Of a stretch of DNA of 64,000 bases, positions 1 to 64,000 are shown one piece after another; position 1 is the stretch's first letter; the number at the start of each line of letters is the position of its first letter. Below the pieces are notes generated by a model. That model saw only the letters and a list, made by a program, of their open reading frames with translations. It was not told the DNA's origin and ran no database searches. Both the position numbers and the translations under genes were made by a program. The stretch is taken from NCBI GenBank assembly GCA_944371955.1, contig CALVYB010000001.1:422-64421 (forward strand), in the 5' to 3' direction. Source of the stretch: an uncultured Bacilli bacterium. Lineage in GTDB: Bacteria > Bacillota_I > Bacilli_A > RF39 > UBA660.

Positions 1-1064
1 ACTCTTGCCCTAACAGAGGTAAAACTTGTGTTATTTCTAATTGCGTAAATTTTAAAGAAGAAAAATGTCCTTTACTTGATAAACCTCCCTATGTTTGTAA
101 TGGATGTAAGCAAAAAACTCAATGTACTTTAACGAAACATATCTATGATGCTACTTTTGCCTTTCAAGAATATAGAGATGTTTTAATTGAAACTAGACAA
201 GGACTTTGGATTGATCAATCTGAAATAGATTACCTTAATTCTATTTTAGTTCCTTTAATTAAAATTCAAAATCAGTCCATTCATCAAGCTTTAGTAAATA
301 ATAAAAACAAAATTATGTTTAGTGATAAGACTATTTATAAGTTTATTGATTTAGGACTTTTAGATATTAGAAATATTGATTTACCTAGAAAAGTTAGATT
401 TAGACCAAGAAAGAAAAAAACTGCTATTTATAAAATAGATAAGACTTGTCTTGTTGGAAGAACTTATGAAGACTTTTTAGAGTATATGCAAAAACACCCT
501 GATACTCCCATTGTCCAAATGGATACTGTTGAAGGGATAAAAGGAGGTAAAGTGTTACTTACTATTCACTTTGTCAATTGTTCTTTTATGCTAGCTTTTA
601 TTAGAAATCATAATGACGCTCAATCTGTTATTGATATCTTTAATTATCTTCAAAATACATTGGGAATAGATAAGTTCAAAGAATTGTTTGTTTTAATACT
701 AACTGATAATGGTTCTGAGTTTTCTAATCCTACTGAAATTGAATTTAATCTTGGTACTGGAGAAAAAAGAACACAAATATTTTATTGCCATCCATCTAGT
801 CCTTATGAAAAAGGTTCTTGTGAAGTAAATCATGAGTTACTTAGAAGAATATTACCAAAAGGTACTTCTTTTGATAAGTTAAATCAAGAAGACATTAATT
901 TAATGATGTCACACATTAATTCTTACAAAAGAAAAAAACTGAATAATGAGTCACCATACTCTATATTCAGTAAACTTTATGGTGAAGACACCATAAACAA
1001 ATTAGGTATTCAAGAAATTGAACCTAACAATGTTAACTTATCTACCCGTTTATTAAAAAAATAA
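1..1064 (+). CDS. IS30-family transposase (5'-partial; reading frame is open from window position 3)
   Basis: Frame 3 is open from the window start through stop at 1064. C-terminal half has the IS30/rve DDE-core signature 'ILTDNGSEF' and the IS30-type tail 'HPSSPYEKGSCEVNHELLRRILPKGTSF'. N-terminal part is Cys-rich. Confidence 0.75.
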   Translation, partial: SCPNRGKTCVISNCVNFKEEKCPLLDKPPYVCNGCKQKTQCTLTKHIYDATFAFQEYRDVLIETRQGLWIDQSEIDYLNSILVPLIKIQNQSIHQALVNNKNKIMFSDKTIYKFIDLGLLDIRNIDLPRKVRFRPRKKKTAIYKIDKTCLVGRTYEDFLEYMQKHPDTPIVQMDTVEGIKGGKVLLTIHFVNCSFMLAFIRNHNDAQSVIDIFNYLQNTLGIDKFKELFVLILTDNGSEFSNPTEIEFNLGTGEKRTQIFYCHPSSPYEKGSCEVNHELLRRILPKGTSFDKLNQEDINLMMSHINSYKRKKLNNESPYSIFSKLYGEDTINKLGIQEIEPNNVNLSTRLLKK

Positions 1065-6000: not shown

Positions 6001-7261
6001 TTAACCTATACGAAAAGCTGGAGAAACACCACCAGTTACGCGCGCAGCATTATACAAAGTTGATTCATCATCTAGAGACGTTCTTACCGTAACATAAAAA
6101 CCGTTTATATAATGACTAGTAGCAGACCGTAACCAGAACCACCTTGGCGCACCTTGATATTCCTTAAATGCACCAGTCACATTAGATGCCGTTACACCAA
6201 TTTGTCTATAGTAGTCTAATTGTCGAGTTTGATTAGTTAAAGTATCTCTATAATGATCCACGCCATATATTTCTTTTGTTGATAATAAATATAATTTATC
6301 AATTGACTTAAAATTACTATTGTCTTCTGGACCATGGCTGGAAATCACAATAGTATCAATAATTCCATTCTTTAAATCATTGGGTAACATTTGATAAAAT
6401 TCGTTTTGCAAGTACCTCCTCATCTCAGTAGCAGGCCAGCCCCCCTTATTAAAACCTTTTGGATATTCGGTAGTTGTAAAATTCATCGGGTGACCAGTAA
6501 TTTGATCTGCAAATTCTAATACAAATCCACATGCTGTTTGAGAAAAATCTTCTGTACTACATTCCACAGGAGTTTCTTTGTTAGCTATCCTTAACACATG
6601 AACACCAAGTTTTCCTAAATCTACTTCTTTGGTATCTCCAACATGATACAGTTCAGTATTATTGTTTCTAACAGCCGCTATAATAGTATCCAAAGAGTCA
6701 TCCGCAAAAGATGTTACACTAGAGTCTTTATATGGACAAGCAAAAGAAGTTTCCGCAGGAATTGACCTAATAGTCGCGACTTTAACTTTTACATCTTCTC
6801 TTTCTAATTTGTCAGACTGTTTTTGATCATTTACAATACCATGGCCTTGTTTATCTGTTAGATAAATGTAATATTTAGTAGTTTGATTTTCATTACTATC
6901 TCGTTCTACTTTTATTTTTACATAACCAAACAAATCCGCATTCCCCCCATGGAGATTTACCCCCAGACTCCAACAATACTGGTAAAGAAGAATCTGTTGT
7001 ATCAATCGGTATATAATATGTACCTTCTGAATTTGATAGCGAACTTACTTTATTCTTACCACAAGTAACATCTTCTAGCAACCACATATTTCTAGCACCA
7101 TTAACATATTGTTGAGCAATATTTAAAAAGCTAGATTTTCTGGCATTCTCAATATATCTTGTCATAGATGGGATTGCAACCATCATTAAAATTCCAATAA
7201 TAACTATTACCGCTAATAATTCTATTAAAGTAAATCCTTTACTGTTTATTCTTTTTATAAT
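6001..7261 (-). pseudogene. type IV pilin/pseudopilin-like protein with a large C-terminal domain, interrupted by a frameshift at a G6 tract (two ORFs, 6896..7261 and 6001..7005)
   Basis: N-terminus 'KRINSKGFTLIELLAVIVIIGILMMVAIPSMTRY' is a class-III prepilin signal (G|FTLIE). There is no in-frame ATG/GTG/TTG between the upstream TAA and the signal; only ATT/ATA codons follow the AGGAGG site. The two reading frames meet at CCCCCC (6943..6948 on the plus strand); removing one G fuses them into a protein of about 420 aa. Confidence 0.6.
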
Positions 7262-7386
7262 ACCTCCTATTCTGTCATCTTATCAAAACTAATAAAATAA
7301 CAGTTTCCTAATTAATTCAATTATAAAATCAATAACCGTCATCACCTCATCCCACTTACCAATTTCATAACCTGTTAAATTATAAT

Positions 7387-7593
7387 TTATGTCAATGACA
7401 GTATTATCAAAGTTATTCCAACTATCAAACAAAGAACTCCCCAAATTTTAGTTAAGAGAATTACCTGTTTTTTATTATGAATTTTTTGTATTTGTAAAAA
7501 AGCAGTATCTGGTGATTTTAAATTCAAAAAGAATTTAGGAAATAGTACTAGCAAAAATGAAATTATACTTACAATTATTCCAATAATTAACAT
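7387..7593 (-). CDS. small two-TM membrane protein
   Basis: 68-aa ORF directly downstream of the CPBP gene in the same orientation. Two hydrophobic helices. Confidence 0.3.
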   Translation of the reverse strand: MLIIGIIVSIISFLLVLFPKFFLNLKSPDTAFLQIQKIHNKKQVILLTKIWGVLCLIVGITLIILSLT

Positions 7594-7605
7594 TTAAATC
7601 ACTCC

Positions 7606-8049
7606 TTATGCCAAAGAAAACATCGCTACAATTGAAGCAAATATATTAGAAAGAGCATGGATAAACCAGCTAGGTAAAATTGAACCATTGGCCTTTTTTT
7701 CATTTAGATATCCCATACTAAATGCTATAATTCCTATAAAAAACACTATAAGCAAAACTCTTGCTACATCTAACACATTAAAAAACATAACCCCATGCAA
7801 TAAGCCAAATATTACACTTTGAATAATATTGGCACTCATATAACCGAATTTGTTAGCCAATCTCTTCAGCAAAAAACCTCTAAATAACAGTTCTTCTGGC
7901 AATGATGTATTAAAAACCGAGTAGATAAGCGCAGGTAATAATCCTTTTATTCCCATTCCGTTAAATTCAGATACTGCTGTTTCAACATCTTTTATCAAAT
8001 AAATTATAATAGAGGAAATTACAATATAACTTACCGCTATTATAAACAT
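7606..8049 (-). CDS. CPBP family intramembrane metalloprotease (CAAX protease / bacteriocin-immunity-like); probably extends to 8221 through a homopolymer frameshift
   Basis: 'EELLFRGFLL...FGLLHG' CPBP motifs. A 50-aa TM-containing ORF (8221..8069, 'MSIVLVNTIISSIMQIFLFSLVTLIWWLA...') joins this frame if one A is removed from the A7 run (T7 at 8087..8093 on the plus strand). Confidence 0.65.
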   Translation of the reverse strand: MFIIAVSYIVISSIIIYLIKDVETAVSEFNGMGIKGLLPALIYSVFNTSLPEELLFRGFLLKRLANKFGYMSANIIQSVIFGLLHGVMFFNVLDVARVLLIVFFIGIIAFSMGYLNEKKANGSILPSWFIHALSNIFASIVAMFSLA

Positions 8050-8262
8050 AACAATAATTGATTCTTTTCTATTTTCATGTTTTATCTTTTTTTAGTCCAA
8101 CCCAACTAAAAAACAATTCTTTTTTTCTTGCAGTAGCTAACCACCATATCAAAGTCACTAAAGAAAATAAAAAGATCTGCATAATACTGCTTATTATTGT
8201 ATTTACTAAAACAATACTCATAAATTATCATAACTCCTTACGACTCGCTACTTTTACATTTT

Positions 8263-9057
8263 TTATTCAAAATAATAGGTCGAATTTTTATTATTTTGAA
8301 TTATAGCGTTTTTTGGCACTACTTTTAAAATATTAAATACATTATAAATATCAGGATAAACACTTACCATTCCCATTATTGACATTCCAAACAGTATGCC
8401 ATTTAATTGTTTTAAGTCACTACTACTAAAACAAAATATAACTAATGGAACCAGTCCTAAAATAATTGGTAATATACTTAAAAATACAAAACGATTTCTC
8501 TTTACCGGGCATGAAGATAGAGCTACCGCCGTTAAACTTTTAGGCATTATACCTATGTATACCGTTGCATCTTTTGGAAAAGCAACAGCATGTAACAATT
8601 CGTGAACAAATATTAACAAAAATCCTATGACAACGCCTATAAATAGACCACCTACATTTATTACCTTTTCATTTGCTATAAATGTTTTTATAAATATACA
8701 TATAAAACAAATTAAGATAGATGGAATCATAAAAGGTAATGCTTTCACTTGCATTTTTATCATATCTTCTTCACTATCTAATTTTTTAGCACTTGTAGGT
8801 ATATCAGAAGTAGGGAAATCACTCTCACTCTTTATTATACCTTTCCATACAATTTTAGACATTTTTCCACTTCTCTCTACTATACAACCTACTATCATTA
8901 TAGCACAAAATATCATAATTTTAGTCTTTCTTTTATATTCATTGCTTTGATTAAATTTACCACTATAATATTTCACTGCGTTACCGACATCACCAGTTAT
9001 TAAAACTAAATTCTCATTCTTACCATTTTCGTAACAATTCGTTCCCCTAACAATCAT
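8263..9057 (-). CDS. DUF3267-like putative zincin metallopeptidase (membrane)
   Basis: 'FVHELLHAVAFP' HExxH motif embedded in several TM segments. Architecture resembles DUF3267. Confidence 0.55.
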   Translation of the reverse strand: MIVRGTNCYENGKNENLVLITGDVGNAVKYYSGKFNQSNEYKRKTKIMIFCAIMIVGCIVERSGKMSKIVWKGIIKSESDFPTSDIPTSAKKLDSEEDMIKMQVKALPFMIPSILICFICIFIKTFIANEKVINVGGLFIGVVIGFLLIFVHELLHAVAFPKDATVYIGIMPKSLTAVALSSCPVKRNRFVFLSILPIILGLVPLVIFCFSSSDLKQLNGILFGMSIMGMVSVYPDIYNVFNILKVVPKNAIIQNNKNSTYYFE

Positions 9058-15487: not shown

Positions 15488-16303
15488 TTAATTAGAGGAT
15501 TGTAATCTGTAATTTACAGGCGACAATCCTTTTAATTTTTCTTTAATTCTATCATAATTATAATACTTAATATAATCATCTATTGCTTTTATTAATTCAT
15601 CTATATTTTTATAATTATTTTCTTGTTCATAAAACATTTCTGTTTTAAGTATTCCAAAAAAGTTCTCCATCATTCCATTATCAATACTATTTCCTTTTCT
15701 AGACATACTTTGGATAATACCACGCCTTTTTAATCTTTCTTGATATGATCGATGTTGATATTGCCATCCTTGATCTGAATGAAGTATTAATCCATTGAAA
15801 TCATCACTCTTTTCAAATGCTTTATTAAGCATATCAGTTATTTGTTCCAAATTAGGTGTTTTAGAAATATTGTGAGATATAACTTCACCATTGAAACCAT
15901 CCAATATTGGCGATAAATAACATTTTTCCCCACGTAGATTAAACTCTGTTACATCTGTATACCATTTCTTATTTGGTTTATCTGCTCCAAAATCTCTATT
16001 AATATGATTATCCGCAATTTTCCCTATGGTTCCTTGATAAGAAGAATATTTTCTTTTATTTCTTTTTAATGGTCTTAACCCTAATTTAACCATTATTCTA
16101 TAGACTTTTTTATGATTAACATTATACCCCTGATTTCTAAGTTCTAAAGTAATTCTACGATAACCATATCTTTTCTTATGATCAATAAAGATTGCCTTTA
16201 TTTTATTAATTATTTCTTCATTTTTAATGTCTTTGTCAATTTTCGATAAAGTATAGTAAAATGTAGATTTAGCTAATCTAGATATTTGTAGAAGAATCAT
16301 CAA
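15488..16303 (-). CDS. IS3-family transposase OrfB (DDE integrase core)
   Basis: 'HSDQGWQYQ' and rve-type core. Overlaps orfA in the -1 frame, the usual IS3 programmed-frameshift arrangement. Confidence 0.85.
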   Translation of the reverse strand: MMILLQISRLAKSTFYYTLSKIDKDIKNEEIINKIKAIFIDHKKRYGYRRITLELRNQGYNVNHKKVYRIMVKLGLRPLKRNKRKYSSYQGTIGKIADNHINRDFGADKPNKKWYTDVTEFNLRGEKCYLSPILDGFNGEVISHNISKTPNLEQITDMLNKAFEKSDDFNGLILHSDQGWQYQHRSYQERLKRRGIIQSMSRKGNSIDNGMMENFFGILKTEMFYEQENNYKNIDELIKAIDDYIKYYNYDRIKEKLKGLSPVNYRLQSSN

Positions 16304-16335
16304 AGGATATGTTTGCCGAAGTTCACTTACAACAC

Positions 16336-16842
16336 TTACTTTTTCTTCTGTTGTTGATTCTTCCTTGCTTGAACAACGGCTCTCAATTTTTTTGAATATT
16401 CTAATTCAGCCTTTAAGTATAAATTTTCTTCTTCTAATCTTTTAATTTTTTCTTTATCAGTTTCCTTTACTTTCTTTTTTAACGTTTTGGACATAGTCGG
16501 ACGACCTCTCTTTCGTTCAACTATATTATAACCCATATTTTTATATTCTCGAATCCAATTAAATAAAATACCATTACTTAAAAGCCCTTCATCTATCGAT
16601 ACAGAACAAGCAGATTCATGATTTAACAATACACGATTAATAATTCTTTGTTTTTCAGTAATTGAGTATTGTTTGTTTTTGAAAGTTTCGATAATATCAC
16701 ATCCATGCCTATCTATTAATTTAATTAAATAATTAAGATTATTAGCACGAACATTATATTTAGACGATAAATAACTAATTGATTGTCCATTTTTCCTTCC
16801 TTGATAAATATTAATTTTATCTTTATAACTTAATTTAGACAT
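16336..16842 (-). CDS. IS3-family transposase OrfA (HTH plus leucine zipper)
   Basis: Helix-turn-helix N-terminus with a coiled-coil 'IKRLEEENLYLKAELEY' and a K-rich tail. Confidence 0.85.
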   Translation of the reverse strand: MSKLSYKDKINIYQGRKNGQSISYLSSKYNVRANNLNYLIKLIDRHGCDIIETFKNKQYSITEKQRIINRVLLNHESACSVSIDEGLLSNGILFNWIREYKNMGYNIVERKRGRPTMSKTLKKKVKETDKEKIKRLEEENLYLKAELEYSKKLRAVVQARKNQQQKKK

Positions 16843-25556: not shown

Positions 25557-25583
25557 CTAGCACTATTATTATACGAGTGCTAA
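25557..25583 (-). promoter_or_regulatory. CIRCE operator (HrcA binding site), promoter-proximal copy
   Basis: CTAGCACTA-N9-GAGTGCTAA, compared with the consensus TTAGCACTC-N9-GAGTGCTAA. Confidence 0.85.
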
Positions 25584-25587
25584 TTGT

Positions 25588-25616
25588 ATTATATGACACT
25601 TATTAGCACTTGTCAA
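25588..25616 (-). promoter_or_regulatory. sigma-A type promoter of the hrcA-grpE-dnaK-pepF-dnaJ operon
   Basis: On the minus strand: TTGACA (25616..25611), a 17-nt spacer, then TATAAT (25593..25588). Both hexamers are perfect consensus and the promoter is overlapped or flanked by the two CIRCE elements. Confidence 0.7.
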
Positions 25617-25629
25617 TGTTTTGTGCTAA
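25603..25629 (-). promoter_or_regulatory. second, degenerate CIRCE operator overlapping the -35 element
   Basis: TTAGCACTT-N9-TTGTGCTAA; 8/9 and 7/9 matches to the CIRCE half-sites. Confidence 0.6.
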
Positions 25630-25653
25630 TCTTTTTTCAAAAAAAAGCAAGTA

Positions 25654-27387
25654 TTAATAACTTGCTACAACAAATTTCCATCTCTCAAAATGATTAGAAG
25701 AAGCCGGTAATGAGAAAAGCGGAGTATAAGCCGTACTTTTATACCCAACATTAATATTAGCTGCATTATATGGAGAAATTGTATAATATCCATTTCCTAA
25801 AGGTGTAATAGTAAGGTTTTGATTAACAGAAGATAAATTAGGAGAATTCAAATAAACCATCGCTTCAGACGACAATACAACAAAATCTTTCTGAAATTGA
25901 GCATTTTGAATATGATAATAACCACCATTTTTATAAACTCTCCACGCTTGATTATCTTCTCCTGTAAATAGTTGCATAGTAGCAGCAAAGTTGTCACCTT
26001 CCTGTTGAAGGGTCAAAACCTTATTATCACTAGCAGAAGAAAAAATATAATAATTGTTTTCTGGCAAATCACCAGTGGAATCATATTGAAATGTATTATA
26101 ACGAATACCATCAGAAGTTTCATATTCGTTTTGTTGACCAACAGTAGAAAGATCACTACTAGCCACTCTAAGTGGAACCCACGTGCTTTTATCAGCGCTT
26201 ACCAATAATTCGTGTCCAGTTACTCTAGATGATGAACTAGTATAAGAATAATTATGCCATACCGCTATTTCATCTAAATCCATCGGACTCTCCAATTGAT
26301 AAATTACACATTTTCGACCGCTTCCATTTATACTAGCATAAGTTCCAGGTGCATCAGCTTTACCATCATTAATAAGCGCAGTATTACTAAGGGTCCCTCC
26401 AATAGTTTCTACATAAGTTAGTTCTTGGCGAACACCGTTGCGTATAGCTTGTATTTCTACCCACTTTCCAATATTAGTACCACTACTAGATCCCGTAACG
26501 CAATCTTGGATATACATAACTTGATTTAGCTTAGTATTACTGCCTCTTCGAGGAGGTGTATTAACGTCATTATCAGACACCTTAGTAATTTTAAACTTAC
26601 CAACTCCAGAGTTGACGCCTGAAATCATCATACCATTATAAATAACGGGGGTATATGACTCTAGCACCATAGAACCACTAGAATTATATTTTCCACGATG
26701 AATCTGAAAAGTTTTAACAGTCTGATTAGTAGAAGAGCGCACGCCCGCATGCCCAGCTATATAGGAAGAGCCACCACCTGTACTAGTAGATCCTCCGTAT
26801 CCTCCTCCACCAGAACTACTAGCACTAGTCATCGTCTGAGTACCAGGGCTGCTACCTTTTCCAGCTATAGCTCCTCCATCACCAGTTGAACCACCACCAC
26901 CAGCTACCATAATACGAGAATCTAATGACTGAGAATCATTCCACTCTCCCGAAATAAGCCTAACATCACTAGCACCGCCACCAGTACTACCACTGTTAAA
27001 AGTATCATTAGCTCCTCCTTGAGCACCAAGATAAAAATAAAGATAATCATTATCTTCCAAAAAAATAATCCCAGAAGTATAGGAACCTCGTCCAGCATTA
27101 GCACCAGTTCCTCCGCTAGCACCCCATAATTCAATCTTATACCATCCTGCATCTGGAACAATAAATTGTCTTCCTTGAGCATCAACTACCCCACCAATAT
27201 ATTCTCCTTCCGTATTAGCAAGACTCAATCGATTAAGTTCATCTTCAACCTTGTCAACAAAAGTCACAGTATTTTGTCGGTTAGTACTTAAATTGCCAAA
27301 CAAAGCCAAAACAATTAATAAAGACATTATCATAAGCCCATATAATAATGTAGAAATAGCAAAACCTCGATTGTTTAACTTTTTCAT
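25654..27387 (-). CDS. pilin-like (prepilin-type N-terminus) surface protein with a Gly-rich domain and a C-terminal ricin-B (QxW) lectin domain
   Basis: N-terminus 'MKKLNNRG|FAISTLLYGLMIMSLLIVLALF' has the prepilin G|F cleavage context but lacks Glu5. Long G/S/T-rich tracts follow. The C-terminus carries QxW-type repeats ('DNQAWRVY', 'FERWKFV') typical of ricin-type beta-trefoil lectins. Confidence 0.6.
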   Translation of the reverse strand: MKKLNNRGFAISTLLYGLMIMSLLIVLALFGNLSTNRQNTVTFVDKVEDELNRLSLANTEGEYIGGVVDAQGRQFIVPDAGWYKIELWGASGGTGANAGRGSYTSGIIFLEDNDYLYFYLGAQGGANDTFNSGSTGGGASDVRLISGEWNDSQSLDSRIMVAGGGGSTGDGGAIAGKGSSPGTQTMTSASSSGGGGYGGSTSTGGGSSYIAGHAGVRSSTNQTVKTFQIHRGKYNSSGSMVLESYTPVIYNGMMISGVNSGVGKFKITKVSDNDVNTPPRRGSNTKLNQVMYIQDCVTGSSSGTNIGKWVEIQAIRNGVRQELTYVETIGGTLSNTALINDGKADAPGTYASINGSGRKCVIYQLESPMDLDEIAVWHNYSYTSSSSRVTGHELLVSADKSTWVPLRVASSDLSTVGQQNEYETSDGIRYNTFQYDSTGDLPENNYYIFSSASDNKVLTLQQEGDNFAATMQLFTGEDNQAWRVYKNGGYYHIQNAQFQKDFVVLSSEAMVYLNSPNLSSVNQNLTITPLGNGYYTISPYNAANINVGYKSTAYTPLFSLPASSNHFERWKFVVASY

Positions 27388-27414: not shown

Positions 27415-27984
27415 TCACACATATCGTAAGATAGCCACCCATTTGTCACCATATTTTTTTCTCTTTACAATTCTTAAGCAAGACGGATAAATAATTTTTT
27501 CCAGTTGATCGCTTTCTGCAACTATTATTCCATTTTTATCCAATAAATTTAACTTTATAATATGAAAAATACTCTTCTCTACCAAATCTGTTTGATAGGG
27601 AGGATCAATAAATATAATATCAAAAACAATCCCTTTAGCTTCAAACTCTTTTAAAGCTTCCAAATAATCTAAACAAAAAACTGAAGCTTCACTTATATCT
27701 AAATTATTCAAATTATTCTGAATAACACGACAAGCTTTTTTATTTTTATCAACCAAATAAGCTTTTTTTGCCCCTTGACTTAACGCCTCTATCCCAAGAT
27801 TCCCGCTTCCAGCAAATAAATCTAATATCAACGCATCACTAATTGAATTTTGGATCATTGCGAATAAACTTTCTTTGACACGATCCATCGTTGGCCTAGT
27901 ACCCACAAGGTCAAATCCACTCAAATTACGGCCCTTATATTTACCACTAATAATTTTCACATTACTCTTCCTTCCTACAATCAA
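27415..27984 (-). CDS. rsmD: 16S rRNA (guanine966-N2)-methyltransferase RsmD
   Basis: 'LDLFAGSGNLGIEALSQGA' SAM-binding motif and the 'IFIDPPY' motif. About 189 aa. Confidence 0.85.
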   Translation of the reverse strand: MIVGRKSNVKIISGKYKGRNLSGFDLVGTRPTMDRVKESLFAMIQNSISDALILDLFAGSGNLGIEALSQGAKKAYLVDKNKKACRVIQNNLNNLDISEASVFCLDYLEALKEFEAKGIVFDIIFIDPPYQTDLVEKSIFHIIKLNLLDKNGIIVAESDQLEKIIYPSCLRIVKRKKYGDKWVAILRYV

Positions 27985-28252
27985 ATGTATAATTTAATTC
28001 CTTAAACTTTTGATTAATAGCTAAAATCAATACATTAACATCTGTCTCTTTTTCCTTATACGACAAAAAACTAGGAGAATTCATAATCTCCTGTTTCAGT
28101 TTTGTAGAAAAGCTTCTATTATACTCTTCTATTTTTGAAATAAGCTCCTTGTCATTAAATATTTCCTTTTTAGCTTCTAAATATTTTCTCACAACATCTT
28201 CATTAGATATTTCATTTTTCAATTGCTCTAATTTTTCCATTAATTCTTTCAT
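27962..28252 (-). CDS. YlbF/YmcA-family (Com_YlbF) regulatory protein-like
   Basis: 96-aa helical, K/E-rich protein. It sits directly upstream of rsmD, overlapping it by 23 nt, as ylbF does relative to ylbH in Bacillus. Confidence 0.45.
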   Translation of the reverse strand: MKELMEKLEQLKNEISNEDVVRKYLEAKKEIFNDKELISKIEEYNRSFSTKLKQEIMNSPSFLSYKEKETDVNVLILAINQKFKELNYTFDCRKEE

Positions 28253-28273
28253 AATTTTATTTTATCACAAAAC

Positions 28274-28501
28274 TTATTTTAATACATCCATAAAAGAAGA
28301 AAGCATTTCAATATTACCAATTAATTGCTCAATACGGTCTGGGAAAGTCAATTTAAAATATCTTTTTGCAACTTTTTCTAAATCTTTTAATGAACTAGGA
28401 TTTCTATTTAATAATTTATACCAAGAAGAATCAACTCTTAAATATGATTGGAGTAATGGAGTACTTTTAATAAGGTGGATTGTCTTAATATCCATAATCA
28501 A
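28274..28501 (-). CDS. hypothetical protein (75 aa)
   Basis: ORF coupled to the upstream 134-aa ORF by an ATGA overlap. No domain recognised. Confidence 0.35.
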   Translation of the reverse strand: MIMDIKTIHLIKSTPLLQSYLRVDSSWYKLLNRNPSSLKDLEKVAKRYFKLTFPDRIEQLIGNIEMLSSFMDVLK

Positions 28502-28902
28502 TCATCAAAATGCTGATATAAAGGTCGAGGCTCATAAGTAGAAACAGGATTTGTTTGTCCTACCCCAATATCCTGTAAAACACCCAACGCTTTTTGAATA
28601 TTAGCAATCCCTTTCTGAACAGAATCCAAATCAATATTTTTTATATGACCAACTAAATCTTTAAGACTAGAAGAAAGATCAGAAACATCATTTTCTCTAC
28701 TATTAGAATCAAGGTTGGTAGTAGAAAAATAATCATCCCAAATACTACTGCGCGCTCCATATATCTCATACAATTCATATAATCTTTGCCAACTTGTCTT
28801 TCCGCGTAAAACATAATCAGCTAATTCAGTATGTTCCCTAGCGAAAGACTTAAAACTTTCTTTCGACACAATATCACCTGCTACACTATATGTAAAAAAC
28901 AA
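28498..28902 (-). CDS. hypothetical protein (134 aa)
   Basis: ORF with a start/stop overlap to the next gene. No domain recognised. Confidence 0.4.
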   Translation of the reverse strand: MFFTYSVAGDIVSKESFKSFAREHTELADYVLRGKTSWQRLYELYEIYGARSSIWDDYFSTTNLDSNSRENDVSDLSSSLKDLVGHIKNIDLDSVQKGIANIQKALGVLQDIGVGQTNPVSTYEPRPLYQHFDD

Positions 28903-46016: not shown

Positions 46017-47426
46017 GAGTCTGTAAAAAACTTTGTGTAAAGTAGAAATCCTTTCTATGGTAATATAGAAATATATACCAAGAAAGGATTTTTAAATGAA
46101 AGAAAATAAAAATAATGAAGTAGTAAAATATATATTAGAAAATTATGATATAAAAAATGCAAATGATATTGCTGATGCTTTAAAAGATATGTTTAAAGAT
46201 ACAATACAAACAATGATGAATGCAGAATTTGATTCATCCATGGGATATGAAAAAAGTGATAGCAAAGTAGAAAAAACCAATTATAGAAATGGTTATTCAA
46301 CCAAGAATGTAAAAAGTAAGTTTGGAGAATTTGAACTTTCTGTACCAAGAGATAGAAACGCAGAATTTGAACCACAAATAGTTCCAAAAAATAAAAGAGA
46401 TATTACAGGAATTGAAGAAAAAGTAATAAATCTTTATGGAAAAGGATTGTCAACAAGAGAAATAAGTGATTCAATCGAAGATATATATGGAGTGCAGCTT
46501 TCAGCCACAATGATAAGTAATATAACCGATGCCGTTTTAGAAGAAATAGAGGAATGGCAAAAAAGACCTTTAAAAGAGGTCTATCCAATTATATTTATTG
46601 ATGCAATACATTTTAATGTAAAACAAGAAAATGTCATTGTTAAGAAAGCAGCTTATGTAATTTTAGGAGTAACTCCAGAAGGTTTTAAGGAAGTATTAGG
46701 AATATGGATTGGAGAAAATGAATCGGCAAAATATTGGTTAAGTGTACTCAATGAATTAAAAAATCGTGGAGTTAAAGATATATTAATAATTTGTTCTGAT
46801 GGATTAAAAGGAATAAGCGAGGCTATTAAAGCTGTTTTTCCAAATACTATGCAACAAAGATGTATTGTTCATTTAATCAGAAATTCTGTTAAGTTTGTTT
46901 CTTATAAACACTTAAAAGAATTTTGTAATGATTTAAGAACTATATATAAATCAAATACTGAAAAGGAGGCACGAGAAAATTTAGAAAAAGTAAAACAAAA
47001 ATGGAATTCCATTTATCCAACAAGTTTAAAAGTATGGGAAGATAATTGGGAAGCAATTTGTACTTTATTTAATTATTCTAAAGAATTAAGAAAAATAATG
47101 TATACAACAAATGCGATTGAGAGCCTGAATCGTTCTTATCGCAAATACACAAAAACTAAAGGTGTATTTACTAGTGATAATTCTTTGATGAAATGTTTAT
47201 ATTTATCCACTAAGAACATTGAGAAAAAATGGACTACTAGATACCCCAACTGGGATATGATTTATAATGAATTAAATATTTTATATCCAGATCGTTTAAT
47301 TTGATATTTGAAAATTTATTAAATCATGATAATATTTGATTATAAAAAAAGAGACTGAGTTCTTCAATCTCTAAAAAATCTTGTTACCATAGATTGGTAT
47401 CTTTACACAAAGTTTTTTACACTCTC
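46017..47426 (+). mobile_element. IS256-family insertion sequence with 26-bp imperfect terminal inverted repeats and an 8-bp target-site duplication TAAAAAAA (46009..46016 and 47427..47434)
   Basis: Left inverted repeat GAGTCTGTAAAAAACTTTGTGTAAAG (46017..46042). Right inverted repeat, reverse complement of 47401..47426, is GAGAGTGTAAAAAACTTTGTGTAAAG. The two direct repeats flanking it are identical. Confidence 0.85.
46096..47304 (+). CDS. IS256-family transposase
   Basis: 402 aa. MULE/IS256 DDE transposase motifs ('IFIDAIHFNV', 'ICSDGLKG'). Confidence 0.9.
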   Translation: MKENKNNEVVKYILENYDIKNANDIADALKDMFKDTIQTMMNAEFDSSMGYEKSDSKVEKTNYRNGYSTKNVKSKFGEFELSVPRDRNAEFEPQIVPKNKRDITGIEEKVINLYGKGLSTREISDSIEDIYGVQLSATMISNITDAVLEEIEEWQKRPLKEVYPIIFIDAIHFNVKQENVIVKKAAYVILGVTPEGFKEVLGIWIGENESAKYWLSVLNELKNRGVKDILIICSDGLKGISEAIKAVFPNTMQQRCIVHLIRNSVKFVSYKHLKEFCNDLRTIYKSNTEKEARENLEKVKQKWNSIYPTSLKVWEDNWEAICTLFNYSKELRKIMYTTNAIESLNRSYRKYTKTKGVFTSDNSLMKCLYLSTKNIEKKWTTRYPNWDMIYNELNILYPDRLI

Positions 47427-52127: not shown

Positions 52128-52541
52128 TCAACCAGCAGCGGGAGCATCTGTCACTTCTTCTACAGCAACACTATACTGTTTAGGAAGAGATTTACTATCA
52201 TAGGTATAAACTTCTTCCTTAACCTCACCAACTTCTAATGCCGGTAAAACAATTTGGATATTATCTATCATCTTCTGTTTCTGATTATAGAAAATAATAA
52301 TTGCATTGGTATTCTCTAATTTTAATTCACTATCATTTTTCATTTTTATTTTAAATGAATTATCATCTATCAATTGAAATTCTAAAAACTCATAACCAAA
52401 ACATGCTGTAAAAAGGAATTTAACTTTCGACTCAGTCTTTTCTTCAATACTTGGTTCGACTTGATAGAGATTTAAACCAACACCAATACCCAACATGATA
52501 ATTCCTAATAAAGTGCATATTATTATACTTTTCTTTAACAT
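52128..52541 (-). CDS. small membrane-anchored protein co-transcribed with the pilin-adhesin gene
   Basis: Start set at the ATG at 52539..52541 (MLKKSIIICTLLGIIMLGIGVGL...), which lies 1 nt from the upstream stop (ATGTTAA). One TM helix plus a roughly 110-aa domain. Confidence 0.5.
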   Translation of the reverse strand: MLKKSIIICTLLGIIMLGIGVGLNLYQVEPSIEEKTESKVKFLFTACFGYEFLEFQLIDDNSFKIKMKNDSELKLENTNAIIIFYNQKQKMIDNIQIVLPALEVGEVKEEVYTYDSKSLPKQYSVAVEEVTDAPAAG

Positions 52542-54736
52542 CCTGACTCCCCATTCCCTCCTATATAATCTACAGTGAACCTTACAGAAAATGTTGAAGT
52601 ATTGCCTACATAATCCTCTAAAGTATACTCTCTCCAATATTGACAAGGATTATCTTTATGAGGTTCTCTTTGGCTCAAACACCCTCCATCTGGTGTTAGT
52701 CTATTAGCATAATCATACATCTCAAAACCAGATTTCCAATAAGTCTTATAACCACTTCCGACGTCGGAAGCTTTAAAACTCACTCCCATAACATCAAAAG
52801 ATCCTGGTGTATCAACTAAACACACTGTAGCTGTACAACTAGCTGGTGCTTTACAAAATATATCTTTAATGTATGGACCATTCTTTATCACAACATCATC
52901 CTTATTCTTTTGCTCCACGTATACTCTATCTTTTAATAACACTTCATGAACACGCGGTGCGGTAAGATCTTGCTTAATCGTTTTTTTTGTTACTCCAGAG
53001 ACATTTCCGGCTTTATCTACTGCTCTTACATATCTATACGTTATACCATCACTATAGTTTCTATATAGTTTATTGGAAAATGTTGTTTGATCCCAAAAAT
53101 TCCAGTCATACCATACCTTATTGTTTGGTGAAATTTGGTATTTACTTATTCCACTTCCACTATCCGTTGACTTCGGTACTGGATTATTTTTATCAGTACT
53201 ACCAGCGGTATAAAATAAAGTTGAACTCCATGTATTATCTGGTAACGATTGCCAACTACCATTTACTAATTCTACAGCCGGTGCGCTTGGAGCTGTCTTA
53301 TCAATTTTTACCGTTTGATTGGCAGGACAGTCAGTAGAATTACCAGCATTATCATAAACTTTACCAGGGCCTTCAGTTGTCGAATTAATATCTTTCGTAT
53401 ACTTCTTAATAACATCTGTTGTACAACCGCTTAAATTATCACTACAATCCCCAGTCAATGTTCTGGCACCGTTTGTCCACGCCGCATTACCACCGCTAGA
53501 AACACAGGTTGGAGGTGTTTTGTCAATATACGTATTAACAGTACAATTTCTACTATTACCAGCATTATCTTCTATCACAACAACACCAGTTTTACCTTCT
53601 GAAGAAATAGTTTCACTATAAGTATCTTTTACACATTCACTTCCACCCGTATCATTACAAGCAACTGTTACTTCTTGATTTTGATTAGTCCAAGTCTTAT
53701 TCTCACCACTTTTACTTCCGCAAGATGGTTTATCAACATCTAAATAAACATCTACTTCACAAGTATTAGTATTACCTGCATTATCCTCGATAGTAAAGGT
53801 ATAAGTTTTAATACTTGAGCCAAAATATTTACTATAAGAAGTTTCCTTACAACCACTAGCTGCATCATCACAAGCCTGTTCTATTTTAAAAGGAGTATTT
53901 GACCATGTTGTCTTATCACCACTGCTATCTCCACAAACAGGTTTATCATTATCTATCTTATAAATTCCTGCCACAGTATCAATAACTGTTTGATTACCTA
54001 AAGCATCTTGAATCCCATTAGTTGAAGAAGAATACCAAGGACGAACTACTAATTTATATTGTCCTGTCACGGTAGGAATGTTACTAGTTGGAATTTTATC
54101 AGTTACTTTCTTCACACCTTTTTTATTTTTATAATTATGAGTATATTCTTCGCTTACTTTTGTCCCAGAGATATCAGTCCAATAATATATAATACCAATA
54201 TTTTTATTCAATGTGTAATCATCTGATATTATAATACTTATTTTTAAATTTTTTGACTGTACCCAGTCACGACTAGATGGAGAAATAGTAACCGTAGGTC
54301 CTTTGGTATCTGGTTCATTGGTACATAAATCGGTATCTATCTTTTTTTCATAAACTATTTTCTCACTATTTCTACAAGTAATAGCTGTTGAATATAAATA
54401 ATTATCATTAACTTTTCTAACTTCTACATACGTTTCAGCATCATTACTACAAGTAATATTTTTATCACCAAAATCTTTAATTAAATTTTGTTTTTTTAGT
54501 TCTGAATAAGGAACTGTAACACATCCAGAAGTATTATTTCCAAATAAATCTTTAGAACGAGAATCTATATATAATTTAGCTCCACTCTCAATAGAACTAT
54601 AATAAGCATCATACTTCTTATTTTTATTTGCACTTTGAATTTTAGAGACTTGAGGTAATGCCAATATTAAAATTACTCCCATAATGGCTATTACTACAAT
54701 CAATTCAACCAAAGTAAAACCTTTATTATTTCTCAT
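52535..54736 (-). CDS. modular type IV pilin-like adhesin: class-III prepilin N-terminus fused to tandem Cys-containing Ig-like repeats
   Basis: N-terminus 'MRNNKG|FTLVELIVVIAIMGVILILALP' is a canonical prepilin signal with Glu5. Three or four repeats of roughly 70 aa follow, of the form 'DKP.CG...G....WTN......AC.D..SGC....Y........TF.IEDNAGN...C.V.VY.D'. The C-terminus is Cys-rich. 733 aa. Confidence 0.7.
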   Translation of the reverse strand: MRNNKGFTLVELIVVIAIMGVILILALPQVSKIQSANKNKKYDAYYSSIESGAKLYIDSRSKDLFGNNTSGCVTVPYSELKKQNLIKDFGDKNITCSNDAETYVEVRKVNDNYLYSTAITCRNSEKIVYEKKIDTDLCTNEPDTKGPTVTISPSSRDWVQSKNLKISIIISDDYTLNKNIGIIYYWTDISGTKVSEEYTHNYKNKKGVKKVTDKIPTSNIPTVTGQYKLVVRPWYSSSTNGIQDALGNQTVIDTVAGIYKIDNDKPVCGDSSGDKTTWSNTPFKIEQACDDAASGCKETSYSKYFGSSIKTYTFTIEDNAGNTNTCEVDVYLDVDKPSCGSKSGENKTWTNQNQEVTVACNDTGGSECVKDTYSETISSEGKTGVVVIEDNAGNSRNCTVNTYIDKTPPTCVSSGGNAAWTNGARTLTGDCSDNLSGCTTDVIKKYTKDINSTTEGPGKVYDNAGNSTDCPANQTVKIDKTAPSAPAVELVNGSWQSLPDNTWSSTLFYTAGSTDKNNPVPKSTDSGSGISKYQISPNNKVWYDWNFWDQTTFSNKLYRNYSDGITYRYVRAVDKAGNVSGVTKKTIKQDLTAPRVHEVLLKDRVYVEQKNKDDVVIKNGPYIKDIFCKAPASCTATVCLVDTPGSFDVMGVSFKASDVGSGYKTYWKSGFEMYDYANRLTPDGGCLSQREPHKDNPCQYWREYTLEDYVGNTSTFSVRFTVDYIGGNGESGC

Positions 54737-54988: not shown

Positions 54989-55876
54989 CTAATAGAATGA
55001 TAGCTGACCTGTAGCATCTTCTATGACAGGTGATTTCTGACTTGTTCCCACTGTTCCTAATTTTTGGTATGTTTTTGGTTTTTCCTTATCATCAGCTGTC
55101 TTTTTACCAATAAACAAATCTGCAAACGCTGGTAAACAGACCTTTATAGTACTAGAATCACCGGTGTTAGCCAAATATAAGAGAGTACTGATTTTTTGTT
55201 CATCCGGCATTCTCCCTACTGTATCACAAGTAATCTTTTGTTCCCTCAATGTAGCAGTTGCTCTGTCAATCCAATCTCTCAGATTTGGATATTGCTTTTT
55301 AACAACATTTATTTTTTCTTGTTCACCACAACCGATTAATGCCGCTAAGACTCTTTCGTTAACACCAAAGTAGGATATATAGTTGACAATTGCATCAGCT
55401 GAATGCGAACCCACAACAGCGTCTTCTAACTTTTCCTGTACCATAGACAAAGCAGGATCCCTATCTTCCCGACCATAAAAATTATTATTTAAAATTCTTT
55501 GTACAGGATCAAAATACCAATAATCGTTCTTTTCTGTTGCCAACTCTATAATTGCAAAAGATAATTGAGCAATTCGCACATAATCGTACCGTCTATCAGC
55601 TATAGATAAAAAATCAGTCATGTGCTCTATAGACCTCAAACCAATCATATACTCAGTACTTCTTTCAAATACAATCTTGTTATAATAAGAGCACGAAATC
55701 ATACCATTTATATCATTATTCTTGACAAGACGATCTGCCATTCGCTGATTGTCTGATGCAGTAAGTGGAAAGTCATCTATGCAAAGTTCAATGAAACCAG
55801 CCACTGAAATCTTATCAATGAAAGGATCCATAAACCATTCACGAGAAGCTCCTGGCAAGTTTAAAAAGTATTGCAA
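54989..55876 (-). CDS. hypothetical protein (higher-GC gene; probable true start is the ATG at 55829..55831)
   Basis: The tracked ORF begins at a TTG. An internal 'MDPFIDK' start is more plausible. Local GC is around 40%. Confidence 0.4.
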   Translation of the reverse strand: MQYFLNLPGASREWFMDPFIDKISVAGFIELCIDDFPLTASDNQRMADRLVKNNDINGMISCSYYNKIVFERSTEYMIGLRSIEHMTDFLSIADRRYDYVRIAQLSFAIIELATEKNDYWYFDPVQRILNNNFYGREDRDPALSMVQEKLEDAVVGSHSADAIVNYISYFGVNERVLAALIGCGEQEKINVVKKQYPNLRDWIDRATATLREQKITCDTVGRMPDEQKISTLLYLANTGDSSTIKVCLPAFADLFIGKKTADDKEKPKTYQKLGTVGTSQKSPVIEDATGQLSFY

Positions 55877-56256
55877 ATAGTATTTTTATTAACTATATTT
55901 GCTTCTTGAGCTACTTTTGCAGCCACTGATTTTTCGAACTTACACAAAGTGCTTTTCTTTATTCTTTCATTCTCTACAGCAGTTTTTACTATACCACATA
56001 AATCAGCAAGATAGCACATATAGAAACGACATTGCTCAAAAATACTATTACATAAATAATCACCGGAATCTAGATCCATTAAAGAAGGATCACTTAACAA
56101 ATACTTTGCAAATTCAAAGCACTTACAAGAAACAACTACCGAAATTAAGTCATCAACGTTCAAAATTCCATTATCAATAAATAATCTAACCGTATCAAAA
56201 GAGCCATTTAAAGGATATTTAATTAAGTTTAAAATCATTTTTTCTTTACGATTCAT
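55861..56256 (-). CDS. hypothetical Cys-rich protein (131 aa)
   Basis: ORF overlapping the next gene by 16 nt at a T5/A5 run. It may be the N-terminal part of one gene. Confidence 0.35.
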   Translation of the reverse strand: MNRKEKMILNLIKYPLNGSFDTVRLFIDNGILNVDDLISVVVSCKCFEFAKYLLSDPSLMDLDSGDYLCNSIFEQCRFYMCYLADLCGIVKTAVENERIKKSTLCKFEKSVAAKVAQEANIVNKNTICNTF

Positions 56257-63623: not shown

Positions 63624-64000
63624 TCAAAAACCAAGTAGTGCAACCAACACCTCTGGAGTAAGTTTAATAAAATACAAAAAGGTAAACGCAAGAAGTAAAA
63701 ATGGTCCAAAAGGAATCATTTTTTCTTTGTTTTTATACAATAAAAATAAAGACATTGGCAAAGCAAAAACACTTCCCAAAAATATTGCAACAGTACCTAA
63801 AAGAGGATCTAAAACAAGTCCAAACACAAACATCATTTTAACATCCCCACCACCGAGACTTTCCTTTTTTAAACTTTTTTCTCCCAACCACATAATTGCG
63901 TACATTAAAGAAAAAAGAAAAACTCCAGTAAAAATATGTTTTAAAGTATCTATAGCACCCACAGACAAAAACTGAACAATAATAAAATAAATAGAAAAAA
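63624..64000 (-). CDS. prepilin peptidase (A24 family), 3' portion; N-terminus lies beyond the window end
   Basis: Frame is open to position 64000. C-terminal motifs 'GGGDVKMMFVFGLVL' and 'IPFGPFLLLA' are typical of PilD/ComC-type peptidases. Confidence 0.7.
   Translation of the reverse strand, partial: FSIYFIIVQFLSVGAIDTLKHIFTGVFLFSLMYAIMWLGEKSLKKESLGGGDVKMMFVFGLVLDPLLGTVAIFLGSVFALPMSLFLLYKNKEKMIPFGPFLLLAFTFLYFIKLTPEVLVALLGF

Follow-up and report, generated by a model that had tools for sequence, protein, structure and literature searches.

A positionally fixed gene of RF39 gut Bacilli encodes a putative pilin-like surface protein with three ectodomains and no Glu5

RF39 is a prevalent, uncultured and genome-reduced order of gut Bacilli. 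A stretch of 64,000 nucleotides from an RF39 genome (GenBank assembly GCA_944371955.1, contig CALVYB010000001.1, positions 422 to 64,421; hereafter the window) contains a gene (25654..27387, minus strand; hereafter the target gene) for a protein of 577 residues that is, with a probability of roughly 55%, a modular pilin-like surface protein whose binding modules are displayed outside the cell, and that has neither the glutamate at position +5 (Glu5) nor the separate head of canonical pilins. The open reading frame (ORF) begins with ATG behind an AGGTGA ribosome-binding site, and the gene is real: its homologue support (657 homologues, the closest at 96% identity) is far beyond chance. No family name is attached to it in the public homologue and cluster records. 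A first-pass annotation had described a pilin-like N-terminus, a Gly-rich region and a ricin-type lectin, and the motifs that it cited were located at residues 5 (NNRGFAIST), 478 (DNQAWRV) and 567 (FERWKFV); a third ectodomain, a beta-sandwich at residues ~286-440, had been overlooked.

Distribution and sequence conservation

The closest genome match was Candidatus Faecimonas intestinavium (75% identity), the remainder being uncultured Bacilli, Mycoplasma and Tenericutes metagenome-assembled genomes (MAGs). Faecimonas corresponds to genus CAG-877 of family CAG-611, order RF39, in GTDB, and the genome of Ca. F. gallistercoris is ~1.4 Mb in size with 28% GC (PMC8035907). An orthologue of the target gene follows rsmD at a distance of 16 to 64 nucleotides (mode 27) in 52 species-representative genomes, with hrcA no more than 4 kb downstream of it in 46 of the 52; the target is a positionally fixed core gene of the RF39 gut Bacilli clade. 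The window copy starts 27 nucleotides after the stop codon of rsmD (27415..27984, minus strand; a 16S rRNA methyltransferase gene, Pfam Cons_hypoth95, 1.5e-53), which is its conserved upstream neighbour and probably its co-transcription partner.

Median identity to the window copy is lower for the target protein (34%) than for any other protein of the neighbourhood (YlbF 39%, YlbD 52%, RsmD 59%, ParC 80%, HrcA 82%), and at three syntenic loci where ParE is 89-91% identical to that of the window, the target is 35-39% identical. Such a combination of a fixed slot with the fastest divergence is expected of a key surface-exposed interaction protein. Within the protein, identity falls from 57-66% at the N-terminus, the best-conserved segment in pilins too, through 46-52% in the glycine-rich domain and 30-38% in the beta-sandwich to 23-31% in the C-terminal trefoil, a gradient that fits a conserved anchoring or assembly module bearing exposed, diversifying binding modules.

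The N-terminal module

The protein begins with a basic leader of eight residues (MKKLNNRG; 27364..27387, minus strand) that ends in Gly(-1) and is followed by Phe (MKKLNNRG|FAIST), which is the form of a class III leader. Residues 9-56 (27220..27363, minus strand), delimited by structural modelling, conservation and hhalign, resemble the alpha-1 helix of pilins: a hydrophobic tract, FAISTLLYGLMIMSLLIVLALFG, gives way to a conserved polar part, NR.NT..FV.K(I/V)EDELNR, and the AlphaFold2 model of the protein (built on 88 homologues; mean predicted local distance difference test score (pLDDT) 91.4, predicted template modelling score (pTM) 0.86) has a single unbroken helix of ~49 residues from residue 7 to residue 55. 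In the 88 aligned homologues G-1, F+1, A+2, Y+8 and R+29 (Arg37) are invariant, and position -3 is Asn in 86. Residues 1-57 served as the query of an exhaustive HMMER search, which yielded 369 clusters at 50% identity, in which all matches but one spurious internal one fall within the first residues of the protein; among 130 further cluster representatives, G-1, F+1, A+2 and Y+8 are kept in 128-130, F+1 in every one.

The leader form NN(K/R)G|F is common to the target and to N_methyl pilins of the same and related genomes, for example MRNNKG|FTLVE in a 733-residue protein of the window and MKRVNNRG|FLLAE in locus L083. When the N-terminal profile of the target family was compared with canonical pilin N-termini from related genomes, hhalign aligned the two in register, with Thr5 of the target on Glu5 of the pilins (93.9%, E 1.6e-7, 28 columns). 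The first-pass annotation had proposed a prepilin-type G|F context without Glu5; the invariant G-1 and F+1 and the in-register alignment bear this out, and the N_methyl profile match and the pilin head that would have completed the likeness are lacking. The protein thus has two features of the type IV pilin family (IPR012902, PF07963, TIGR02532), namely the Gly|Phe leader and the alpha-1 helix, and is without three (Glu5, the hidden Markov model (HMM) signature and the head). These sequence comparisons partly support a reading of the N-terminus as a degenerate class III (prepilin) signal followed by a pilin alpha-1 helix.

The same Glu5-less module also fronts other ectodomains, namely a trefoil by itself, ConA-like Laminin_G_3 domains and ChW domains, as well as regions with no assigned domain. 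Five proteins of ~300 residues (P0442, P0482, P0502, P0457 and P0478) join it to a Cys-rich ectodomain without a Pfam match, and in three the C-terminus is a conserved ...G(I/A)R(P/A)VV.INK; the suggestion that such GIRPVV.INK endings belong to DUF6273 was rejected (hhalign probability 0.1%).

Ectodomain architecture

The ectodomains of the target protein number three: a glycine-rich domain, a discoidin-like sandwich and a trefoil. The first was known to the first-pass annotation as 250 residues rich in Gly, Ser and Thr. This composition is correct (42.5% Gly/Ser/Thr with 21% Gly at residues 58-285, compared with 19-30% Gly/Ser/Thr in the other segments), but the region is a defined fold, the ALK/LTK-type glycine-rich domain (GRD; ~residues 58-285; 26533..27216, minus strand). 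It matches PF12810 (ALK_LTK_GRD) at E 3.2e-19 with 70.3 bits against a cut-off of 24.5; Foldseek aligned it with the TG/GRD structures of LTK and ALK in the PDB (7nx1, 7nx4, 7ls0 and 7lrz, E ~1e-5 to 1e-6), and the family profile matched C. elegans SCD-2/ALK (7lir) at 1.2e-3 among PDB sequences. Most of the domain is assigned as coil by DSSP, yet pLDDT exceeds 90 throughout, the Gly runs included. The GRD is a TNF-like sandwich plus a polyglycine region, a known fold.

GRD proteins were also noted as multi-copy paralogue arrays with Sec/SipW-like signals in the style of TasA and camelysin (...GTSYA.LKG) in loci L057, L059, L068 and L081 (the CAKORJ MAG) and others. The signals differ between paralogues, and these bacteria use no fewer than three types of them to export the GRD; since some are Sec/SipW-like, the domain as such can do without a pilus.

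The middle sandwich (~residues 286-440; 26068..26532, minus strand) is all-beta at ~290-431 in the model and is probably akin to F5/8 type C (discoidin) and NedA-like galactose-binding-like domains. No Pfam match to it was obtained in the window protein itself; homologues of 44-53% identity match PF00754 and PF22633 collinearly and near threshold (23-36 bits against cut-offs of 27.8-28.2).

The C-terminal domain (~residues 441-577; 25657..26067, minus strand) is a ricin-type beta-trefoil spanning ~444-574 in the model. A ricin-B-type domain had been predicted here, and the Pfam search indeed returned RicinB_lectin_2 (PF14200) at E 1.8e-8 with 35.4 bits against a cut-off of 25.6. The closest structural match in the PDB was ThreeFoil (3pg0; TMt 0.82, root-mean-square deviation 2.1), with HA17, HA33 and the SSA lectin also matched, the overall range being TMt 0.73-0.82 at 2.1-3.5 Å; in PDB sequences the family profile found MTX (4.7e-16) and ThreeFoil (7.3e-15). 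The predicted fold therefore stands on Pfam, Foldseek and PDB profile evidence, whereas of the predicted Q-x-W repeats the first alone is intact (Q479 and W481, nearly invariant), the other two having degenerated to NQNLT and FERWK.

Type IV filament genes and other pilins of these genomes

The C-terminal part of a prepilin peptidase gene of the PilD/ComC type, with a GGGDVK motif, runs off the end of the window (63624..64000, minus strand). The fragment matched the peptidase of locus L077 (phmmer, 1.8e-19) and Pfam Peptidase_A24 (3.3e-5), and it was the only match in the window to PilB, PilC and PilD of L077. Contig L090 of the same species (6206-8481) carries a full A24 peptidase of 253 residues with both Asp motifs, preceded by a T2SSF (PilC) protein of 500 residues; this pilC-pilD pair is ~37 kb from the target gene. 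The PilC of L090 has an N-terminal extension of ~150 residues, no ATPase gene adjoins it, and ylbJ-ylbL lie ~5 kb upstream of the pair. In four other lineages (L077, L083, L099 and L101) ylbJ-ylbL directly abut a pilin gene, one that in L077, L083 and L099 is part of a cluster containing pilB.

The T2SSE (PilB) ATPase was found in the more distant lineages L077, L083, L099, L101 and L102. L099, L101 and L102 are as distant from the window as L077 is: YlbL of L099 and L101 is ~38% identical to that of L090, and ParE of L101 is 71% identical compared with 89-93% within the clade. A search for PilB homologues returned 120 matches, all 69-76% identical, and these are too conserved to be sorted by lineage. 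A look-up around dnaB in pursuit of the ATPase gene yielded nothing but short contigs.

In related low-GC gut Bacilli, Glu5-bearing paralogues with a GRD plus F5/8C and/or ricin modules adjoin the machinery genes, and these paralogues are modular pilins in the sense of Raynaud et al. 2021 (PMC8179133). The cluster of L077 comprises T2SSF, A24 and T2SSE genes together with a pilin-like protein of 566 residues and a GRD pilin of 692 residues; that of L083 comprises T2SSE, a GRD-ricin pilin of 919 residues and a pilin of 156 residues. In locus L019 a canonical pilin of 691 residues, homologous to the 733-residue pilin of the window, is encoded directly between the orthologue of the target and hrcA.

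The 733-residue protein is a canonical large modular pilin (52535..54736, minus strand; Pfam N_methyl, 1.8e-8) and a likely co-substrate or partner of the target. In its AlphaFold2 model a helix (residues 9-65) leads into a small beta-sheet head (70-131), after which come Ig-like sandwiches in tandem and, at the C-terminus, a beta domain; Foldseek matched this model to nothing more specific than generic proteins with tandem Ig/MG domains. The chromosomal position is conserved among its 544 homologues, whose C-termini vary. The Ig-like repeats carry conserved Cys residues, and the C-terminal modules differ between species (Big_3_2 and TSP1-like modules in homologues). A gene for a small membrane protein (52128-52646, minus strand) always follows that of the 733-residue pilin, and the 1.42-Mb contig L093 has two pilins of this type and about nine paralogous small membrane proteins.

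A third pilin-like gene (6001..7263, minus strand) encodes INSKG|FTLIE and a DUF6273 domain. It has no ATG, GTG or TTG start, AGGAGGT being followed by ATT/ATA, and its frame breaks near 6945-6960, where a pair of homopolymers (G5...G6) lies. The gene may be a pseudogene or the result of an assembly error, or the runs may form a phase-variable tract such as is known from Neisseria pilC. For the two canonical pilin genes of the window, the first-pass view that they belong to a family of binding modules displayed on pili is reasonable; for the target it is plausible.

Anchoring and display of the target protein

If the protein is pilin-like, PilD, the genome's own prepilin peptidase, would cut the leader MKKLNNRG after Gly8, the helix would retain the processed protein in the membrane, and the PilC platform with an ATPase would feed it into a type IV filament, of which it would be the first subunit and cap the tip; alternatively, it might stay a processed membrane stub. 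A subunit normally requires Glu5 to polymerise into the body of a filament, and the absence of Glu5 is the hallmark of capping subunits, so that a protein without it could presumably be only the first, tip-capping subunit or else such a stub. Whichever applies, the three ectodomains (GRD, discoidin-like and trefoil) would form an exposed ligand-binding (adhesin) head, in which the GRD may serve as a rigid binding scaffold while the fast-evolving trefoil and discoidin-like domains may contact glycans or other ligands of host or partner cells. The occurrence of GRD-type modules in phage tail fibres, in a PilY1 architecture and in N_methyl pilins is, by analogy, consistent with the scaffold role.

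Several observations weigh against this reading. Position +5 is Thr in 83 and Ser in 5 of the 88 homologues and Glu in none; among the 52 syntenic orthologues it is Thr, Ser, Ala, Val or Ile, never Glu, and among the 130 representatives Thr, Ser or Ala. The N-terminal 61 residues were not matched by PF07963 (N_methyl) even at E<=10, in a search in which the 733-residue pilin scored 4.7e-10, and no NCBIfam prepilin model matched the target at E<=1. The hhalign match is carried by a short, hydrophobic and compositionally biased segment. The GRD begins 2-3 residues past the end of the helix in the model, and its start at ~residue 58 leaves no space between the two for a pilin head with a beta-sheet of its own; the helix-GRD junction is also modelled at low confidence (pLDDT 54-71). 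The gene lies outside any pilus locus, in a housekeeping operon; the T2SSE (PilB) ATPase was not found in the window or in same-species loci by phmmer with PilB of L077, and the window has no small major pilin. As to the ligand, the Asp of the ThreeFoil LDV motif is replaced by Thr459, Val503 and Asn546 in the target (the family majority being Thr at the first position and Gln at the second, with the third variable), so that none of the three trefoil subdomains has the second-strand Asp that, with a stacking aromatic residue, makes up the canonical ricin-type sugar pocket. The epithet "carbohydrate-binding" of the first-pass annotation accordingly derives from the fold, and binding of carbohydrate by the trefoil, possibly via a non-canonical site, is a guess from that fold.

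The foremost alternative, possible and clearly less probable than the pilin-like reading, is an uncleaved N-terminal signal-anchor: a type II membrane protein with a transmembrane anchor, a stalk and a GRD/lectin ectodomain, unconnected with prepilin peptidase or filament. Anchoring of this kind resembles that of TNF-family ligands and would agree with the lack of Glu5, N_methyl match and pilin head, with the location of the gene outside pil loci, with the ATPase not having been found for this genome in the searches made, and with the ordinary Sec/SipW-like signals of other GRD paralogues. It leaves unexplained why over 200 diverged sequences all keep Gly-Phe-Ala on the cytoplasmic side, why the NN(K/R)G|F leader is common to canonical pilins of the same genomes, and why the profile matches pilin N-termini in register; the keeping of PilC and PilD in a reduced genome of ~1.4 Mb also speaks for the pilin-like reading over a signal-anchor.

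A soluble lectin or toxin-like protein, secreted by Sec and freed by signal peptidase I, is improbable. Its attraction is that the PDB sequences closest to the trefoil include MTX and HA33/HA17, secreted toxins and components of haemagglutinins, and that some GRD paralogues have Sec-type signals; yet the hydrophobic stretch of ~22 residues runs unbroken into the ~49-residue helix with no conserved small-x-small cleavage site after it, and the NR.NT..(F/L)V..IE(D/E)ELNR that follows is among the best-conserved parts of the protein, unlike a discarded signal peptide. Least probable of all is a prophage-derived receptor-binding or tail-fibre protein or its remnant, an origin that was rejected on synteny (the identical rsmD-hrcA slot in 52 species genomes, with no phage genes nearby) and is further at odds with the N-terminal membrane helix. 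Phage matches do exist, of the GRD region to five PHROG families of unknown function and, by Foldseek against BFVD, to phage proteins that contain GRD-like modules and to tail fibres of Bacillus phages, but each covers a single domain only.

A bolder form of the pilin-like reading, doubtful and somewhat less probable than the signal-anchor, would make the NN(K/R)G|FA(I/V)ST..Y module an unrecognised class of Glu5-less, head-less carriers, which would either combine capping of the K type with adhesion in one protein or be displayed by PilD and PilC without a long filament, and which would be the main attachment determinant of RF39.

Comparison with known systems

In modular pilins a pilin acts as the carrier for grafted binding modules, and Dataset S1/S2 of PMC8179133 includes N_methyl-PF12810 and N_methyl-ricin proteins as well as a PilY1 with PF12810. 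The class as defined there joins an IPR012902-positive pilin module to a domain that has no specific link with pili; the target clearly has such non-pilus modules (GRD, F5/8C-like and trefoil), on a carrier without the IPR012902 signature and without the head. Among modular minor pilins, those of Streptococcus sanguinis join a pilin to vWA (PilB) or to Ig-like and ConA-like lectin modules (PilC) (Raynaud et al. 2021, PMC8179133; Shahin et al. 2023, PMC9934059). The target protein is like them in its short basic leader ending in Gly, its helix carrier of ~50 residues, its bulky C-terminal modules, its monoderm host and its predicted tip location; unlike them it has no Glu5, N_methyl signature or separate beta-sheet head, is an orphan in a housekeeping operon, bears three modules, and is known from sequence and model alone.

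Subunits without Glu5, such as the K subunit and PilA of S. sanguinis, cap or initiate filaments, and the signal peptide of this PilA, itself without Glu5, escapes all prediction tools (PMC9934059); given these precedents, a protein with a degenerate signal may still be a pilin. In the HIJK complex the filament cap is the K subunit (GspK/PilX type), which also has an additional domain. The target resembles it and PilA in the lack of Glu5 and in a degenerate class III signal, a likeness that concerns these features and not structure; K and PilA adopt the pilin fold, and their operons also encode partner minor pilins. By analogy, the target would work most like the modular minor pilins PilB and PilC of S. 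sanguinis combined with a Glu5-less capping subunit.

The first ectodomain is like the metazoan ALK/LTK TG domains (7nx1, 7nx4, 7ls0 and 7lir) in its PF12810 match, TNF-like sandwich and Gly-rich stretches, whereas the protein as a whole is bacterial and has no kinase, EGF or MAM/LDLa modules; TM-scores against ALK and LTK are low because one of the four target segments aligns. The third is like R-type/CBM13-like lectins (HA17/HA33, MTX, SSA and ThreeFoil) in fold, in its RicinB_lectin_2 match and in the first Q-x-W, and unlike them in having Thr, Val and Asn, unconserved in the family, for the pocket Asp, so that binding specificity is not transferable. The Glu5-bearing GRD pilins (L077, 5191-7269; L083, 5476-8235; L047, 4858-8109) share the combination of a GRD with F5/8C and/or ricin modules and the style of leader, but they keep Glu5, have 190-390 extra residues between helix and GRD, and are encoded in or beside a pilus cluster. 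The target family is a derived form, relocated and with the spacer lost.

Genomic neighbourhood and other features of the window

The first-pass annotation had placed the target gene divergent from the heat-shock operon, which is incorrect: the minus strand carries rsmD, the target gene and hrcA-grpE-dnaK-dnaJ alike. A terminator-like hairpin with a T-run (25646..25666, minus strand) overlaps the stop codon of the target gene, and the spacer of 115 nucleotides that separates it from hrcA holds this hairpin, a promoter and two CIRCE elements. The boundary between the two genes is the hrcA operon control region (25557..25629, minus strand), in which a TTGACA-17-TATAAT promoter at 25616-25588 (12/12 match to sigma-70) is flanked by CIRCE elements at 25557-25583 and 25603-25629, of which 0.03 matches would be expected by chance. 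A perfect sigma-70 promoter flanked by two CIRCE inverted repeats before hrcA is the textbook form of an HrcA-regulated heat-shock promoter. hrcA has a promoter of its own under HrcA control and, since the 3' hairpin is followed by this separate promoter, the target gene appears to close a ylbD-ylbE-ylbF-rsmD unit as its final cistron. These four genes always precede it, in the window (27962-28902, minus strand) and at all syntenic loci; in Bacillus, YlbF (RicF) is linked to the regulation of competence and biofilm formation.

At 54989-56256 (minus strand) the window has two overlapping ORFs of 131 and 295 residues, which correspond to a single gene of 422 residues in L090 (15848-17116); the window copy therefore carries a frameshift. 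Transposase-like ORFs were recognised by eye at 15488-16842 (minus strand), 46096-47304 (plus strand) and 315-1064 (plus strand); of these three, one is IS3-like with two ORFs and one IS256-like. Elements of this kind would explain why same-species assemblies break at similar places.

Significance

Fusions of pilins with GRD and with ricin modules have already been catalogued (PMC8179133), and the concept is therefore known. New are a large carrier family without Glu5 and without a pilin head, its place among the syntenic core genes of RF39, and the head of three modules. Being without Glu5 and head, the carrier is missed by motif-based surveys (IPR012902), and literature searches on PF12810 in bacteria, on RF39 pili and on RF39 surface biology returned nothing relevant. 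If the protein is indeed pilin-like, the modular-pilin principle would extend to carriers that have neither Glu5 nor a head, and bacterial ALK-type GRDs would gain a concrete role as displayed binding modules. Residues 58-577 would then be a recombinant target for finding the ligands to which RF39 attaches, which could aid culturing. If, furthermore, the N-terminal module does define a class of carriers, the protein would be the main attachment determinant of an abundant, never-cultured and genome-reduced order of gut bacteria.

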